Below are positions 12,131 through 19,526 of a stretch of 64,000 bases of DNA, in pieces (within the stretch, counting starts at the first letter, position 1; every line of letters begins with the position of its first letter). Under the pieces are notes generated by a model, which saw nothing but the letters and a program-made list of their open reading frames with translations, was not told where the DNA came from and made no database searches. The stretch spans positions 190,732 to 254,731 of the forward strand of contig JAZUKI010000003.1 in the NCBI GenBank assembly GCA_045643205.1, written 5' to 3'. This DNA is from Clostridia bacterium (GTDB lineage Bacteria; Bacillota; Clostridia; TANB77; CAG-508). The translations under genes were made by a program, and so were the position numbers.

Positions 12131-14572
12131 GTGAGGAATACAATGGATAATGATTCTGAATTAAAAGAAGATGAGATTGAATTTGATAAAAAAATTTCAC
12201 GTTATACATTTAGTGAAGATAAAGATTTTAGAATTTATAAACAATTAAGAGTTGAAGCAGGAGACAATCCTAGATTAATAGAAATACTTTGGAAAAAAAT
12301 TATTTTAAAATATTATTGTTCTCCTAGTTTTGTAATTGAAAATAGAGATGACGTTACTTTATTTAAAGAATTTTCTGAATTAATTAATGATGTTAGTAAA
12401 GATGGCTTTATGTATGGATTAAGTAGCAAAATACCATTAGAGGAACTTTTTGAAAAAATATCAGACATACCTGAAACAGCTGTAACAATATTTTCCTTGA
12501 TTTCTCCCAATACTACTATTGTTGAAAAATACAAAGAGTTTCAAGATAAATATATAGATAAATTATTTGAATTAGCTAAAGATACAAAAAACTCTAAAGA
12601 AAATTTGTGTAGAATGTGGAAATCAATATGTAGTGATGAATTAAAATTAGACAAGTTAAATGAAGTTTTAGCATATACAGGTATAGCAAACAGTCCTGAG
12701 ACAATGAGTAAAATACAACAAACAATACAGGTTAACAAAGATTTCTTATATATGATAACTCCTAAATTTTTAGATGCAAATTATATTAATAGCTTTTCTG
12801 TTGAACAATTAATATATATAGTTTCATTTCCTGAGTTCCAAAAAGACTTGGTAAAATTAGATAGTAATGAACTAGGAAATATGATGAAGTTAGTAAATGA
12901 AATATATCCCGAAAATGAAGAATGGAAGGAACCATTAAATAAAATATTACAAAATGTTAAAGATAAAAAGTTTGGAGATTTATTAAAAGGCAATGAATTA
13001 AGTTATGATAATGAATTAGTTAGTGTTTTATCAAATAAGAATTATTTTGAAATTTACAGAAAAGAAGATTTAGATAGTATAGATAACAAAAAGAAAGAGG
13101 CAACTTTATTAATAAAAAATGGAAATCAAAAACTTCTTTTAGAAAAATACCCGGAAATTGCTAGATTAGAATTAATAGAACAAATGAAATTAATGGCTTG
13201 TGAAAATATTCTTGGATTATCATTAGATGAGGCTAAAAACCTAGTATTAAAATATGGAGAAGATATAGATAATATTGGAAATGAATATAGCGAATTATTT
13301 TTAAAAAATTATGTTAATGCATTGAAAGCAATTATAAATGAAGATAAAAGTGAAAAATTAGCTAAATTACTTGATTATGGAATTACACCAAAAGAAAAAA
13401 TTAAAGATTCATATACGATTGAAAGCATGCTAAAATTTACATATGGGAAAAAATATGATGTGGCAAATGTAGATTTTAATTCCTTAAGGTCATGTAAAGT
13501 TAAAGGCTTAGAAGGAATTGAAGTACTTGATGCAGGAGTGGATTTTTCTATGATTATTTCTAGTGTTGGAGCATACAGAGTAAATGAAGATGAAAACTAT
13601 TATGATAGTTGGAATAGGCCTTCTTTAAGTTCTGATATTATTAGTACATCATTTATTAGAAATGATATGATGGGAAGAGCAAATTGCCCAAGACTATATT
13701 TTGGATTTAATAATATGAGTGCAAGTGCACTTGATTTATCTGGAAGTGCAGATTTGTTTTCAAAATCAGATAGTATTCAATCTAAGGCGGTGAGGGCATT
13801 AGCATTCTATACTCCTGATACTCAAATTGGTCAAACAGGTAGAAAAAAGTATTCTAATGGTCAAATTATCAGTGCTTATAACGAAATGGACTATAAGAGA
13901 ATTCAAGATGGAGAGAGAAAGCAACCTGATTATATTGTTGTTTTTGGAAGCTATGGTAATATTGATGAGAATCAAAGTGGACAAATGCTTATGGATGGTA
14001 ATAAATTACCTGATGTATCTGTTTCTAAAAAAGAAAGAGCTCAAAATATAAAAAAAGCAATATCTGATTTTGAAAGAGCAACAGGAAAAAAATTACCTGT
14101 TGTGTTCGTAGATTTAGGCAAAGTATATAGAAATGAAGAAAAGATAATAGGTCAATTAAGAGAAGAGTATAAAATTAATCCAAGTGAAGAAAACAAAAGA
14201 AAATTAATAAAAAGAATTAAAAATTTTAATTCTTATAAGCATTATAAATTACCAATTGAATTTTCAGAAGAAGAAATTGGGAAATTTGATAAAATTGAAG
14301 ATAATGTTTCTGACTTTGAATTGACTGATAAAACAATAGAAGATATTAAATTGTTTGATTTCGAAGAATTCAGACAAGAAAAGAATAATTATAGGATTAA
14401 AAGACTAGAAAAAATAAATTCTCAAGAAAATATTTCTAACAAAAAAATTAGCCTTAGAAAACTTATTCCTATTGCATCATCAAGAGATAATGCATATAGA
14501 ATAGGTAATAATCCATTTAAAGCAATTAGAGATTTTATAAAGCAAAGAAACTCAAATGATAAGGAAAGATGA
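12131..14572 (+). CDS. Large hypothetical protein; C-terminal domain possibly of ADP-ribosyltransferase-like fold
   Basis: 813-aa ORF; ISTSF and YNE motifs in the C-terminal half; ends ...NSNDKER. Confidence 0.55.
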   Translation: MRNTMDNDSELKEDEIEFDKKISRYTFSEDKDFRIYKQLRVEAGDNPRLIEILWKKIILKYYCSPSFVIENRDDVTLFKEFSELINDVSKDGFMYGLSSKIPLEELFEKISDIPETAVTIFSLISPNTTIVEKYKEFQDKYIDKLFELAKDTKNSKENLCRMWKSICSDELKLDKLNEVLAYTGIANSPETMSKIQQTIQVNKDFLYMITPKFLDANYINSFSVEQLIYIVSFPEFQKDLVKLDSNELGNMMKLVNEIYPENEEWKEPLNKILQNVKDKKFGDLLKGNELSYDNELVSVLSNKNYFEIYRKEDLDSIDNKKKEATLLIKNGNQKLLLEKYPEIARLELIEQMKLMACENILGLSLDEAKNLVLKYGEDIDNIGNEYSELFLKNYVNALKAIINEDKSEKLAKLLDYGITPKEKIKDSYTIESMLKFTYGKKYDVANVDFNSLRSCKVKGLEGIEVLDAGVDFSMIISSVGAYRVNEDENYYDSWNRPSLSSDIISTSFIRNDMMGRANCPRLYFGFNNMSASALDLSGSADLFSKSDSIQSKAVRALAFYTPDTQIGQTGRKKYSNGQIISAYNEMDYKRIQDGERKQPDYIVVFGSYGNIDENQSGQMLMDGNKLPDVSVSKKERAQNIKKAISDFERATGKKLPVVFVDLGKVYRNEEKIIGQLREEYKINPSEENKRKLIKRIKNFNSYKHYKLPIEFSEEEIGKFDKIEDNVSDFELTDKTIEDIKLFDFEEFRQEKNNYRIKRLEKINSQENISNKKISLRKLIPIASSRDNAYRIGNNPFKAIRDFIKQRNSNDKER

Positions 14573-15036
14573 TAGAAATTATGACATTAAGTAATTATTA
14601 TAGAAGGGCTATTACAGAAGTACTAGAAATTTTAAAAAATGTTGAAATTGATGAATATAATAAAATACCTCAAAAAATTATTACCTTTTTAGAAGAACAG
14701 AAAGATCCAAATTATATCTTTACTATAAAGCCGAATCAGAATTTTGAAGATCTTAAAATAATGGATGAAACTAAAGGCTTTTTAAGTTTAATTTATTATA
14801 GCTACTTATGTAATTCCGATGAGGAAAGAAAGTTATATTTACTAACTTTAAACCATAATGAAAAGAAATTCCAAGATGAATTAAGAAAACAATATGATTA
14901 TAATAAGCTTTTTAAGGATAAAACCGAAAAAAAAGAGAATTTAATAGTTGATAATACTACACAATTGGTTAAAGATAAAGAAAATTTTTTTATAAAATTT
15001 ATAAATTATATAAAAAAAATATTTAAAAGACACTAA
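14569..15036 (+). CDS. Hypothetical protein, translationally coupled to the upstream gene
   Basis: ATGA overlap with the stop of 12131..14572; amphipathic C-terminus FFIKFINYIKKIF. Confidence 0.7.
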   Translation: MIEIMTLSNYYRRAITEVLEILKNVEIDEYNKIPQKIITFLEEQKDPNYIFTIKPNQNFEDLKIMDETKGFLSLIYYSYLCNSDEERKLYLLTLNHNEKKFQDELRKQYDYNKLFKDKTEKKENLIVDNTTQLVKDKENFFIKFINYIKKIFKRH

Positions 15037-16142: not shown

Positions 16143-16421
16143 ATGAGTACATTTGAATCTTTTATTTGGTGTATAATTATTATAGGATTTATGGCAAAAT
16201 GGAATAAAGGAAATGATGAATCGAAATATGGATCAAAAAGAAAAAAATATAAATCAAAGGATAATAAGTCAGAATATTCAGATGAAGAAATAGAAAAATA
16301 TAAAAAAATTTACGGTTTAGATGATGAAGAAGTAAGAGAGATAAAAAACGGAAATCATGATCCGTGGGACTTTGAAGAAACAGATGCAACAGAAGAAAGT
16401 GATTATTATAACAAGGATTAA
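16143..16421 (+). CDS. Small hypothetical membrane protein
   Basis: AGGAG RBS, N-terminal TM helix, acidic tail. Confidence 0.6.
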   Translation: MSTFESFIWCIIIIGFMAKWNKGNDESKYGSKRKKYKSKDNKSEYSDEEIEKYKKIYGLDDEEVREIKNGNHDPWDFEETDATEESDYYNKD

Positions 16422-16511
16422 AATTGAAAAAATTACATAAATATAATATAATTAATTTATTCAAATGGCATACATCATAGGAAAAATATTAATTTAGAGA
16501 GGTATAAATTT

Positions 16512-17939
16512 ATGAGTGGTGTTTATGAAAATAGAAAGACAATTCGAGATTTAAACAATTTAATTAGAATGTATAAGCCATTAAAAGATGTTGAATATTA
16601 TTTTGTTTTAGGATATCCAAGATCTGATATAGGAAAAGGAACTTTAGTAGCTCAATTATTAGCAAATGTAAAAGATTCAGATGCAATAAAATATGATGGG
16701 CTATTAAATACAAATGAAAATGGAAGACATACAGCAGTAGGACATGATGATTTCGGAGTATACGAAAAATTTAATGAAGGAAAAAGATGGGGAAGAGAAC
16801 ATTATTTATTAGGGGGAGAACTTTATAGAGATTTTATTAATAGTTATGGAGAAAATGAAAATCTTCAAATAAATCCTCATATGTCTTTATATGTTGAATA
16901 TGTGATACATAAAATGTGGAATGATATAGGAAAGCCTAAGAAATTATTTATAGAAGTAGGAGGACTAATTTCAGATCCTGAAGTTGATCCTATAATTACT
17001 CCAATAATACAAAGATTAACTTCTGAAGGTTTAGCAAAAGTAATATTACTTACTGAATCATCATATAATGGAGAATATATTAAATCTAAAATAGTCCAAG
17101 AAGGGGTAAATAAATTCTTAGAAAGAAGAATTGAGCCTTGGATAGTATTTGTAAGAGATGCAAAAGATATGGGAGAAATATCTACATCTCAAAGAATAGA
17201 GAATGAAAGAATTATAATGAACAAAATTATTGAAAACTTTAATTTTAATTTAAAATTATTAGTTTCAATTCCATACTTTGATGAATTAAAACAATATACA
17301 GAGTATATTAGAAAAAGATTTTGTCCAATTATTAATGAAGTTGATAAAAAGGAAATAGTTCTTGCAACTAAAAATGAATCAAAAATTGCGGATTATAAAT
17401 TATATCTAGGTGATGAATATAATATTAAAACAACAAAAGATTATGATTACGATATAGATATAGTAGAAGGAACAACTTCAGCAGAAGAAAATGCAATTGC
17501 AAAAGCAAGAGCATGGTGTAAAGTTACTGGAAAAATAACAATTGGAGATGATACAGGATTCTTTATACATGAACTAAATGGAGAGCCAGGAGTTGCAACA
17601 AGAAGATGGGGAGGACAACTTCCAGAAAATGCAACAAATGAAGATTTTTGGCAATTCTTAAAAATAAAGACAAAGAATTTAAAAGATTATACTTGTCATT
17701 TTGAACAAAATATAGCAATTGCTTATCCAAGTGGAAATGTTGAATTGATAAAATCAATTAATCAAGGTATTTTAAATAAAGAGAATCTAAAAAAAGAATA
17801 TAATGGAACAGGTTATCCACTAGGAGCAGTTTTTGAATCTTTAAATAGAAATAAAAATTGGGATGAAATGACGGATGAAGAGAAAAAAGAATTTGATAAA
17901 AATTTAATTAAAGAATTAAAAGAAAAATTATCAAAATAA
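16512..17939 (+). CDS. Fusion of a CTP-synthase N-terminal (amidoligase)-like domain and a Ham1/ITPase domain
   Basis: N-terminal SDIGKG, KYDG, DFGVYEKF, QINPH, IEVGGLISD and KSK parallel PyrG motifs; C-terminal LATKN..K, ENAIAKA and DDTG...LNGEPGV are Ham1 motifs. Confidence 0.8.
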   Translation: MSGVYENRKTIRDLNNLIRMYKPLKDVEYYFVLGYPRSDIGKGTLVAQLLANVKDSDAIKYDGLLNTNENGRHTAVGHDDFGVYEKFNEGKRWGREHYLLGGELYRDFINSYGENENLQINPHMSLYVEYVIHKMWNDIGKPKKLFIEVGGLISDPEVDPIITPIIQRLTSEGLAKVILLTESSYNGEYIKSKIVQEGVNKFLERRIEPWIVFVRDAKDMGEISTSQRIENERIIMNKIIENFNFNLKLLVSIPYFDELKQYTEYIRKRFCPIINEVDKKEIVLATKNESKIADYKLYLGDEYNIKTTKDYDYDIDIVEGTTSAEENAIAKARAWCKVTGKITIGDDTGFFIHELNGEPGVATRRWGGQLPENATNEDFWQFLKIKTKNLKDYTCHFEQNIAIAYPSGNVELIKSINQGILNKENLKKEYNGTGYPLGAVFESLNRNKNWDEMTDEEKKEFDKNLIKELKEKLSK

Positions 17940-18074
17940 TATGTGAAATATATTAATTATATTAATTATATATTTACTCAAAATTTATGACTATATTTTT
18001 GAGTTAGGCTGATTGAAGTATTAATGAGAATAATATGTTATACATTTAATAATCACAACAAAGGAGGAAATATC

Positions 18075-18620
18075 ATGTTACAATCATTTATTGTTACTGG
18101 AGCATCAGCTTCAGGAAAATCAACTTTAATTAATGAAGCTAGAAAAAATTATATTTATCTTCCAACTCACATGACTCGTGATTTAAGAAAAAATGAAGTA
18201 AATGGGATTGATGCAATTTTCATTAATGAGGAACAATTTATTAAAAACTTTAATGAAGGTATGTATTTAGAAGATTCTTTGGATTTTGCATTTGTTCATA
18301 GTTTAAGAAACTACTATGGTTCACCATCTATGTGGATTGAAAAACTTAAAGAAGATGGATATTGTGCTTCACCAGTTTCTATTGTCATTGCAGAGAAGAT
18401 TGTTAGTCTTTGTACTAATTTATGTTGGGTACATTTATATTGTCCTAATGAAATCCGGTATGAAAGATTAATTAACAGAGGTATTTCTCAAGAAGAAGCT
18501 AGTAGAAGAATGAATACTGGTGATTCAAGAAACATACCTCAAAAAGCAAATTTAGTTTTAGATACTTCAAAAAACAGCCCGGTAGAGATTCTTTCTAAGA
18601 TTAATAATTATAAAAAGTAA
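18075..18620 (+). CDS. Guanylate-kinase-like P-loop protein
   Basis: GASASGKST, THMTR..R.NEVNGID, YYG and RL..RG; AAGGAGG RBS supports the ATG at 18075. Confidence 0.8.
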   Translation: MLQSFIVTGASASGKSTLINEARKNYIYLPTHMTRDLRKNEVNGIDAIFINEEQFIKNFNEGMYLEDSLDFAFVHSLRNYYGSPSMWIEKLKEDGYCASPVSIVIAEKIVSLCTNLCWVHLYCPNEIRYERLINRGISQEEASRRMNTGDSRNIPQKANLVLDTSKNSPVEILSKINNYKK

Positions 18621-18632
18621 TCTCAAACCAAA

Positions 18633-18669
18633 ACAAAAAAGACTTTCATTTTTGAAAGTCTTTTTTGTT
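18633..18669. terminator. Bidirectional terminator
   Basis: AACAAAAAAGACTTTC-loop-GAAAGTCTTTTTTGTT between convergent units. Confidence 0.75.
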
Positions 18670-18672
18670 GTT

Positions 18673-18748
18673 TGGTTGCGGGGGTAAGACTCGAACTTAC
18701 GACCTCAGGGTTATGAGCCCTGCGAGCTGCCAACTGCTCCACCCCGCG
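18673..18748 (-). tRNA. tRNA-fMet (CAT), initiator type
   Basis: CGCGGGGTGGAGCAGTTGGCAGCTCGCAGGGCTCATAACCCTGAGGTCGTAAGTTCGAGTCTTACCCCCGCAACCA; C1:A72 mismatch, three G-C pairs in the anticodon stem, encoded CCA. Confidence 0.97.
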
Positions 18749-18920: not shown

Positions 18921-19526
18921 TTATTGTTGTGGTGGTACGTTTCCTGGATTTTGTGGTTGTTGTGGTTGTGGTGCTTGATATTGTTGGAATGTACCTTGTG
19001 GGTTAACTGGTTGTGCAGGTTGTTGATAGTTTTGTTGTGGTTGGTATGGTGGTTGATATGGTGCTTGATATTGTGGTTGGTAAGAAATACCCCATGATTT
19101 TCCAACATATCTTGCATTTCCCCATGCTAACATTGGATAGAATATAAGTGGTAATAAGATTAAACCAACTGCAAAACCACCTGATTTTCCATATGATCTA
19201 GCCATGTAAATTCCTAAGATGATAAGAAATACAATTACACCGAAAGGAATTAAGTTTATAAACCACATAGCTTTTGGAATACCGCAAATTTCTAGTAAAC
19301 AAATTTCATTGTGTACAGGTATAAGTCCATCTATACCTTCTTTTCCAGCCTTTTTTAAAATTGACCAATAAGAAGCGTATAAAAGTACGATTGAAATTAA
19401 TGCAAAAATCATTATAAAAATAATTAGTCCCCAAAATGCTGCTAATATATTTCCTACAAAAGCAGATGAATATGATGGAAATGATGAGTATGTTGAGTAT
19501 GTTGAATATAAAGTTAATAAATCCAT
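18921..19526 (-). CDS. DUF5684-like membrane protein with a Q/P-rich tail
   Basis: W.ILKKAGKEG...LIP.HN and ARSYGKSGGFAVGLILLP motifs. Confidence 0.75.
   Translation of the reverse strand: MDLLTLYSTYSTYSSFPSYSSAFVGNILAAFWGLIIFIMIFALISIVLLYASYWSILKKAGKEGIDGLIPVHNEICLLEICGIPKAMWFINLIPFGVIVFLIILGIYMARSYGKSGGFAVGLILLPLIFYPMLAWGNARYVGKSWGISYQPQYQAPYQPPYQPQQNYQQPAQPVNPQGTFQQYQAPQPQQPQNPGNVPPQQ

Follow-up and report, generated by a model that had tools for sequence, protein, structure and literature searches.

The 64,000-nucleotide window analyzed here (positions 190,732 to 254,731 of contig JAZUKI010000003.1 in the Clostridia bacterium assembly GCA_045643205.1; C3:190732-254731 of the source genome, G000) carries a two-gene cassette in which a CTP synthase-type amidoligase domain is fused to a Ham1-like domain and the fusion gene is followed, on the same strand, by a divergent member of the guanylate kinase family (Table 1). 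To our knowledge, CTP synthase is treated as universally two-domain and glutamine-dependent; in the fusion protein, a Ham1 domain stands where the glutaminase domain would be. On balance, we consider it probable, if by no great measure, that the cassette brings together an ammonia-dependent CTP synthase, a Ham1 pyrophosphatase of new specificity and a nucleoside monophosphate (NMP) kinase, and that very small genomes use it as a mobile unit for salvage and pool cleaning.

Table 1. The cassette and adjoining features, in window coordinates
Feature	Position	Strand	Remarks
Promoter-like site TTGAAA-17-TATAAT, 5' of the fusion gene	16424..16452	+	Consensus match alone, 11/12 positions
Fusion gene	16512-17939	+	Open reading frame (ORF) translation of 475 aa; CTP-synthase amidoligase and Ham1-like domains
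N-terminal amidoligase domain, residues 1-275	16512..17336	+	CTP_synth_N, Foldseek; without ammonia-tunnel gate
C-terminal Ham1-like domain, residues 276-475, stop included	17337..17939	+	Ham1p_like; base pocket remodelled
Guanylate-kinase-family NMP kinase paralogue	18075..18620	+	181 aa from ATG 18075; longest ORF from 18024
Terminator-like hairpin between the kinase gene and tRNA-Met, bidirectional, 17 pairs	18632..18669	both	Site prediction
tRNA-Met(CAT)	18673-18748	-	3' end faces the kinase gene; convergent

The fusion and kinase genes appear to form one operon. A ribosome-binding site lies 5' of the fusion gene, no terminator-like site was predicted in the interval between the two genes, and the hairpin downstream of the cassette is common to the kinase gene and the convergent tRNA-Met gene, whose 3' end the pair abuts, as had been remarked in an earlier note on this DNA. 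The true start of the kinase is likely ATG 18075 rather than position 18024; the former is preceded by a AAAGGAGG site, and homologues begin at the equivalent point. Promoter-like sites of the kind listed in Table 1 occur in the region about as often as expected by chance (32 found versus 31.3 expected). The cassette does not differ from the window in GC content (26-29% versus 28.8%), and among sequencing runs it had a match in no RNA run and a small share (0.06) in one DNA run, from a gut metagenome.

The fusion protein scores 38.8 bits against the Pfam family CTP_synth_N (cut-off, 26.1; residues 80-268), compared with ca. 420 bits for the canonical PyrG of its relatives, and 92.1 bits against Ham1p_like (cut-off, 22.5; residues 282-461). 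All of its NCBIfam matches lie below the equivalog cut-offs, that to XTP/dITP diphosphatase reaching 95.9 bits against a cut-off of 234, and the Pfam scan found no glutaminase domain in the protein. An AlphaFold2 model built on 28 homologues (pLDDT, 89.5; pTM, 0.87) was submitted to Foldseek; CTP synthases in the PDB were the best matches to its N-terminal half (E of ~1e-13), and Ham1/RdgB proteins matched its C-terminal half (4bnq, with a TM of 0.86 over the target). Profile and structure searches thus agree with the earlier note in placing a Ham1 domain where PyrG has its glutaminase, and the PyrG motifs which that note had quoted (SDIGKG, KYDG, DFGVYEKF, QINPH and IEVGGLISD) are all present in the translation. 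Relative to PyrG, the model carries an extra N-terminal helix of ca. 25 residues. A homodimer prediction from two copies of the fusion (scores of 0.08 and 0.01, the mark being 0.42) was uninformative on oligomers.

The earlier note had allowed that the fusion might be an artefact of assembly. It is not, since we recovered 59 full-length homologues and found the kinase gene adjoining the fusion in 48 of 54 fetched loci, across phyla. These comprise 18 genome loci and 36 metagenome loci (some of which may represent an organism sampled in both collections), and the immediate neighbor of the fusion, on its strand and in either order, is a kinase homologue in 14 and 34 of them, respectively. A word-indexed search yielded 66 protein clusters, nearly all of them two-domain, and an exhaustive search of 1.84 billion representatives gave 27 matches at E<=1e-30, with full-length members extending down to 33% identity and with single-domain amidoligase (ca. 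280 aa) and Ham1-like (ca. 200 aa) proteins among them; the kinase family, with 42 clusters on the same contigs, is about as small. Where public records give a name, it is "non-canonical purine NTP pyrophosphatase" or XTP/dITP diphosphohydrolase, and most of these records come from Saccharimonadales/Patescibacteria. Full-text literature searches returned nothing relevant on this architecture or on a glutaminase-less CTP synthase in these lineages, and the main text of a Saccharibacteria Tn-seq paper (PMC10633639) makes no mention of CTP or Ham1. The earlier note had likewise known of no description of such a protein, and the records name the Ham1 half only.

Carriers of the fusion include uncultured Clostridia and Bacilli known from gut metagenome-assembled genomes (73-78% identical to the fusion), Saccharibacteria/Nanosynbacter (50-60% identical), Nomurabacteria and Paceibacterota. 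Overall, few genomes have the cassette and its distribution is patchy, with most occurrences in Saccharibacteria and other Patescibacteria, which are ultra-small symbionts; in the order of the source organism, 2 of the 201 sampled genomes encode the full-length fusion. In a FastTree phylogeny of 34 full-length proteins, the gut-bacterial sequences form the sister group of a saccharibacterial clade, inside the wider diversity of Patescibacteria; this is consistent with horizontal transfer of the cassette in a direction that is not proven. The two halves also occur apart. Pfam-confirmed stand-alone amidoligase proteins of 274-316 aa exist, as do stand-alone Ham1-like proteins of ca. 200 aa, and amidoligase-only forms were found in one saccharibacterium and one nanoarchaeon. 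At the nanoarchaeal locus (L045), the amidoligase is encoded apart from a Ham1-like protein of the same subtype, whose gene lies ca. 800 bases downstream; because the two genes are split neighbors there, the fusion can be regarded as a Rosetta-stone pair. A 301-aa ORF lies between these two genes (L045:6737-7642), and a canonical pyrG follows 2.4 kb further on. Our guess, from its motifs, that this ORF encodes a protein like nucleoside diphosphate kinase (NDK) was rejected, as Pfam and PDB sequence searches gave nothing significant.

CTP synthase is described, in PMC9138612 and PMC8325340, as a two-domain, glutamine-dependent enzyme, and the amidoligase half of the fusion retains the residues on which its synthase chemistry depends. 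When aligned with E. coli PyrG and the canonical PyrG of relatives, all 59 full-length homologues have equivalents of E. coli K18, K40, D42, D72, E140, G142, D147, E149 and K187; the equivalent of G143 is kept in 58 and that of Q192 in 57, and the K189 position holds lysine in 51, arginine in 7 and glutamine in 1. According to PMC8325340, K16, K38, D70 and E145 of the Drosophila enzyme touch the transferred phosphate, D40 hydrogen bonds with the uracil, D152 and E154 touch the ribose, and K192, T193 and K194 touch the triphosphate of UTP. The corresponding residues of the fusion (K42, K60, D80, E148, D62, D155, E157 and K191) are present in 59/59 homologues, and K193, the equivalent of a further triphosphate contact, is kept in 51. 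The fusion has in common with PyrG/CTPS the amidoligase fold, the P-loop, the Mg and phosphate-transfer residues and the contacts to uracil, ribose and triphosphate. The "unknown nucleotide pathway" announced by the earlier note was an overstatement, because no residue on which CTP synthase relies for the ATP-dependent activation of UTP is missing from the amidoligase.

What the amidoligase half lacks, relative to PyrG, is the means of receiving ammonia from glutamine. Besides the missing glutamine amidotransferase domain, a 12-residue deletion, found in all 15 aligned members (full-length and N-terminal-only forms), removes the stretch containing P54, H57 and V60. As set out in PMC9138612, these residues form a conserved constriction of the ammonia tunnel at the entry to the synthase site, and CTP synthase is able to use exogenous NH3 and NH2OH. 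Read from its sequence, the amidoligase half looks like a CTP synthase lacking ammonia delivery. We propose that it would phosphorylate O4 of UTP with ATP and that, because the gated delivery tunnel has been deleted, free cellular ammonia would most likely attack the activated base directly.

The source genome, that of a gut bacterium (1.008 Mb in 10 contigs, 100% complete by marker genes), has no other candidate for this reaction among its matches to PF06418 (CTP_synth_N), of which the fusion is the only one genome-wide. Neither a canonical pyrG nor a class-I glutaminase (PF00117) was found in the whole genome, and canonical Gmk, NDK, class I/II ribonucleotide reductase, PurA and GuaA also gave no match; Cmk, a PyrH-like kinase, a dUTPase and three PF00383 deaminases are present. 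The earlier note had raised the case that the protein is the sole, ammonia-dependent CTP synthase of its genome with ordinary ITPase activity: it is indeed the sole CTP synthase homologue, in a genome lacking class-I glutaminases, whereas ordinary ITPase activity is not expected (see below). A relative, G042, encodes PyrG, Gmk, PurA and GuaA in addition to the cassette, and canonical pyrG is found in 18 of 24 genomes of the same genus; the source genome is more reduced than its relatives. Two Nanosynbacter genomes with the fusion only (G227 and G229) have PyrH-like kinase, NDK and reductase genes and lack both Cmk and PF00383 deaminases, so that the sole visible route to CTP would run from UMP through UDP and UTP and then through the fusion.

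Across 15 distinct carriers (G000 and 14 genomes reached through their loci), a canonical pyrG co-occurs with the family member in 8 and was not found in 7; these 7, in which the family member is the only CTP_synth_N match, represent at least four separate lineages. Among 301 sampled genomes from the class to which G227 belongs (a tally that includes the unpublished G467 and leaves four two-match genomes uninspected), 271 have a canonical match, G227 has the fusion only and 29 have no CTP synthase homologue. Its genus (61 genomes) divides into 42 genomes with a canonical match only, 2 with the fusion only, none with both and 17 with neither.

Like its amidoligase partner, the Ham1 half combines conserved catalytic residues with a remodelled site. 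Of the 59 homologues, 57 retain the N-x-x-K, E...N...K and DDTG motifs; the two divergent members that have lost them keep the amidoligase half intact. The domain thus resembles RdgB, ITPA and Ham1 in its fold and in the motifs for phosphate binding and catalysis, the DD[ST]G aspartate among them. It differs from them in the base pocket, where the G-F-G-Y-D-P of canonical Ham1 (the F-G-[YW]-D-P motif) has given way to G-[YF]-P-[LI] and where two new tryptophans, W366 and W450, are nearly invariant in the family. SHR, the signature that together with the F-G-[YW]-D-P pocket confers ITP/XTP specificity and that the earlier note had reported missing, is found in none of the 59 full-length homologues: in a MAFFT alignment, the canonical I-S-H-R falls on F461-D462-K463-N464, and arginine occupies the arginine position in 5/59. 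Arg-178 is reported in PMC5075207 to be essential for ITP recognition, so much so that even R178K fails to complement. The Ham1 domain is probably an active NTP pyrophosphatase, and one that is probably no longer selective for ITP/XTP. Ordinary ITPase activity is not expected, because SHR is missing and the genome has a separate RdgB-type gene, itself canonical (181 bits, with S-P-R in place of S-H-R). The same G-[YF]-P-[LI]-type pocket recurs in stand-alone Ham1-like proteins of Patescibacteria and in the nanoarchaeal Ham1 neighbor, and for this reason we regard the type as a distinct subfamily. A role for the domain as a replacement for dUTPase was considered and rejected, since dUTPase is present in both G000 and G042. 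The source genome also has a third Ham1-like gene (L004:1495-2106, on C4), which encodes 203 aa, scores 55 bits, has a G-Y-P pocket without SHR and adjoins a polysaccharide deacetylase gene.

The kinase scores 36 bits against Pfam Guanylate_kin (cut-off, 25.2) and 55.6 bits against TIGR03263, far below the equivalog cut-off of 160, so the earlier note was correct in calling the neighbor a divergent guanylate kinase-like protein. In common with E. coli Gmk, it has the P-loop, T-T-R...R, E72, YYG[ST] and the lid arginines; unlike Gmk, it has lost Y53 and the D101-x-x-G element and has gained a 6-residue insertion. Four of the five carrier genomes checked also encode a canonical guanylate kinase (94-123 bits) at another locus, which is why we regard the cassette kinase as a paralogue. 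Within the oral Nanosynbacter-type clade, the cassette kinase either stops short of the lid or is frameshifted, and four metagenome loci have a fragmented fusion gene, which suggests that the cassette is decaying in some lineages. Several saccharibacterial loci (L079, L092, L093, L095 and L036-L041) have the fusion in two to three ORFs together with a truncated or frameshifted kinase. We also asked whether the kinase replaces Cmk and found no consistent pattern: Cmk occurs alongside it in G000 and G042, and in G229 Cmk is absent yet the kinase is broken. At another place in the source genome (L005:1495-3529; C3:116461-118495, outside the window), a second divergent guanylate kinase-like gene, which encodes 187 aa, scores 38 bits and lacks equivalents of E72 and YYGT, is followed directly by genes for an APH-type phosphotransferase and an HD-domain hydrolase.

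If our preferred reading is correct, the fusion would be able to stand in for PyrG, as its position as the sole CTP synthase homologue in the source genome and several others would imply. Its Ham1 domain would convert an NTP to NMP and PPi, acting on a pyrimidine or aminated nucleotide. One possibility is that it turns CTP into CMP; another is that it removes wrong products, such as N4-substituted CTP released from the open amidoligase site. The divergent NMP kinase would then return an NMP to the di- and triphosphate pool, and the whole would constitute an accessory cassette that moves horizontally among very small genomes unable to make nucleotides de novo. A glutaminase-less and gate-less family of this kind would amount to a second, ammonia-dependent way of making CTP, and would supply a step that is missing when the metabolism of Saccharibacteria and similar symbionts is reconstructed; carriers would appear to lack CTP synthesis because the public records name the gene only as a purine NTP pyrophosphatase. 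Moreover, its conserved link to a Ham1 domain of new specificity and a special kinase would offer an example, open to direct testing, of how a synthase may be coupled to the cleaning of pools or the processing of its product.

Several observations weigh against this reading. Because 8 of the 15 carriers also have a canonical pyrG, the cassette is not simply a replacement for pyrG and may do something else. The idea that the fusion is the only route to CTP is weakened, if the genomes concerned are complete, by the 17 of 61 and 29 of 301 that have no CTP synthase homologue at all. D62 would be equally needed for any lactam base, and the deletion adjoins the position of O4, where a larger (purine) substrate or a bulkier nucleophile might be accommodated. 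By their sequence, E72 and YYG[ST] of the kinase point to a purine NMP rather than to CMP or UMP. Finally, neither partner of the amidoligase is strictly needed, since members of the Nanosynbacter-type clade have a broken kinase and 2/59 homologues have degenerate Ham1 motifs.

Such points bear on a different proposal, which we regard as possible but unlikely, namely, that the open-site amidoligase acts on a nucleotide other than UTP, or with a nucleophile other than ammonia, in some repair or modification route. It might aminate another oxo-nucleotide (dUTP, or the deaminated purines in ITP to ATP and XTP to GTP) or produce an unusual base, such as N4-substituted cytosine or 2-aminoadenine, with the Ham1 domain and the kinase cycling the substrate or product between NMP and NTP. 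Were this so, the outcome would be either the recovery of canonical NTPs from their deaminated forms or the synthesis of a non-canonical base, and the Ham1 and kinase components would set the phosphorylation state of the nucleotide concerned. The trio of pyrophosphatase, amidoligase and guanylate-type kinase would then resemble the phage PurZ/MazZ route to 2-aminoadenine, although the phage pyrophosphatase is of the MazG rather than the Ham1 family and the phage genes are separate. Apart from the frequent presence of pyrG in genomes with the cassette, the opening of the site next to the reactive carbonyl and the guanine-contacting E72 and YYG[ST] of the kinase, this proposal draws support from the absence of PurA and GuaA in G000, G227 and G229 and from the company that the cassette keeps. 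Its neighbors in the window are housekeeping genes; elsewhere they vary and often include enzymes of the nucleotide pool, the whole set comprising NUDIX, NT5C-type 5'-nucleotidase, NTPase_I-T, extra Ham1 copies, small P-loop kinases and Ogt, of which NUDIX, NTPase_I-T, Ogt and the Ham1 copies are damaged-nucleotide enzymes.

Against this, the residues that position UTP, including the ribose and triphosphate contacts, are all kept and none is systematically changed, and where pyrG is missing, a carrier must obtain its CTP in some way. Nor is a purine role predicted by any metabolic gap, given that G042 has PurA, GuaA, PyrG and Gmk together with the cassette. The cassette was also not found in the phage collections searched: the fusion had no match in PHROGs (the kinase matches a phage guanylate kinase PHROG), none of 20 candidate viral contigs was confirmed as carrying it, and in 50,697 phage records the Ham1 half alone was matched, in 10 records, none covering 80% of the query.

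It is also conceivable, though we think it improbable, that CTP synthesis and generic NTP cleaning have merely been joined in one polypeptide, with a spare guanylate kinase traveling along and each part working independently. Stand-alone amidoligase and Ham1-like proteins of the same subtypes do exist, and the two homologues with degenerate Ham1 motifs and an intact amidoligase would be readily accommodated. As no canonical Gmk is present in the source genome, phosphorylating GMP may be all that the kinase does there. A loose parallel is offered by E. coli K-12 (NC_000913.3, 2908029-2910685; L046), where pyrG lies directly beside mazG on the same strand. There too an amidoligase-type nucleotide synthase adjoins an NTP pyrophosphohydrolase, although the latter is of the MazG rather than the Ham1 family and the genes are separate; we know of no functional coupling between the two. 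However, a generic cleaning enzyme would not be expected to have a conserved pocket of its own (G-[YF]-P-[LI], W366 and W450, no SHR), unlike that of generic RdgB, or to be accompanied by a separate RdgB in carrier genomes. The amidoligase and Ham1 genes stay together even where they are split, in the archaeon, and the three parts are linked in 48/54 loci across phyla. The pTM of the model (0.87) likewise suggests a fixed packing of the two domains.

The earlier note had further drawn a comparison with the Kongming anti-phage system, in which a HAM1-like domain acts as a sensor. The cassette shares with KomB a Ham1 fold, a patchy, non-housekeeping context and the involvement of a nucleotide kinase. 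In bioRxiv 10.1101/2024.12.20.629578, however, defensive HAM1 proteins are described as having the catalytic Asp invariably changed to His and the base-binding residues kept, and KomB is catalytically dead by this Asp-to-His change, retains its purine pocket and works with a SIR2 effector and an adenosine deaminase to which it is linked. All three of these features are reversed or missing in the fusion cassette, whose Ham1 domain shows the opposite arrangement. It is thus very improbable that the cassette is a Kongming-like anti-phage or signaling module in which Ham1 detects a modified nucleotide that the kinase has helped to make: a patchy, horizontally spread distribution and the pairing of kinase and Ham1, which recalls the phage kinase and HAM1 sensor of Kongming (bioRxiv 10.1101/2024.12.20.629578), are set against a catalytic Asp kept in 57/59 and a base motif lost in 59/59, neighbors that are housekeeping or nucleotide-cleaning genes, the lack of an effector domain and of SIR2 or adenosine deaminase among the annotated neighbors, and the lack of hits in PADLOC (whose 2023 library is older than Kongming). 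Of the three roles that the earlier note had entertained, salvage (or pool cleaning) is the one that the neighborhoods fit; defense and signaling find no support in the PADLOC results, the housekeeping surroundings or the phage and viral sequences, in which no fusion was found.

A few further features of the carrier loci deserve mention. In the Nanosynbacter-type clade, the cassette is followed by a lone gene of the dihydroorotate dehydrogenase family (379 aa; L036:7734-8873, with 19 further loci showing the same); its hosts are said to lack de novo nucleotide synthesis. At one of the saccharibacterial loci (L093), the cassette and this gene are separated by an intact gene for alanine racemase. 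Within the window, upstream of the cassette, two overlapping ORFs of 813 and 155 aa (12131-15036, + strand) gave no match above threshold in Pfam, NCBIfam, PHROGs or PADLOC. A 92-aa ORF just 5' of the promoter-like site (16143-16421, + strand) matched no family in the Pfam scan; its product has a hydrophobic N terminus and a Lys/Glu/Asp-rich tail. We had hoped to trace an insertion beside the tRNA gene through synteny with close relatives; this was dropped, the DUF5684 neighbor being too divergent from its homologues in the same genus (best identity of 64%, at a contig end). That neighbor (18921-19526, - strand) is a membrane protein with a C-terminal tail rich in Gln, Pro and Tyr.

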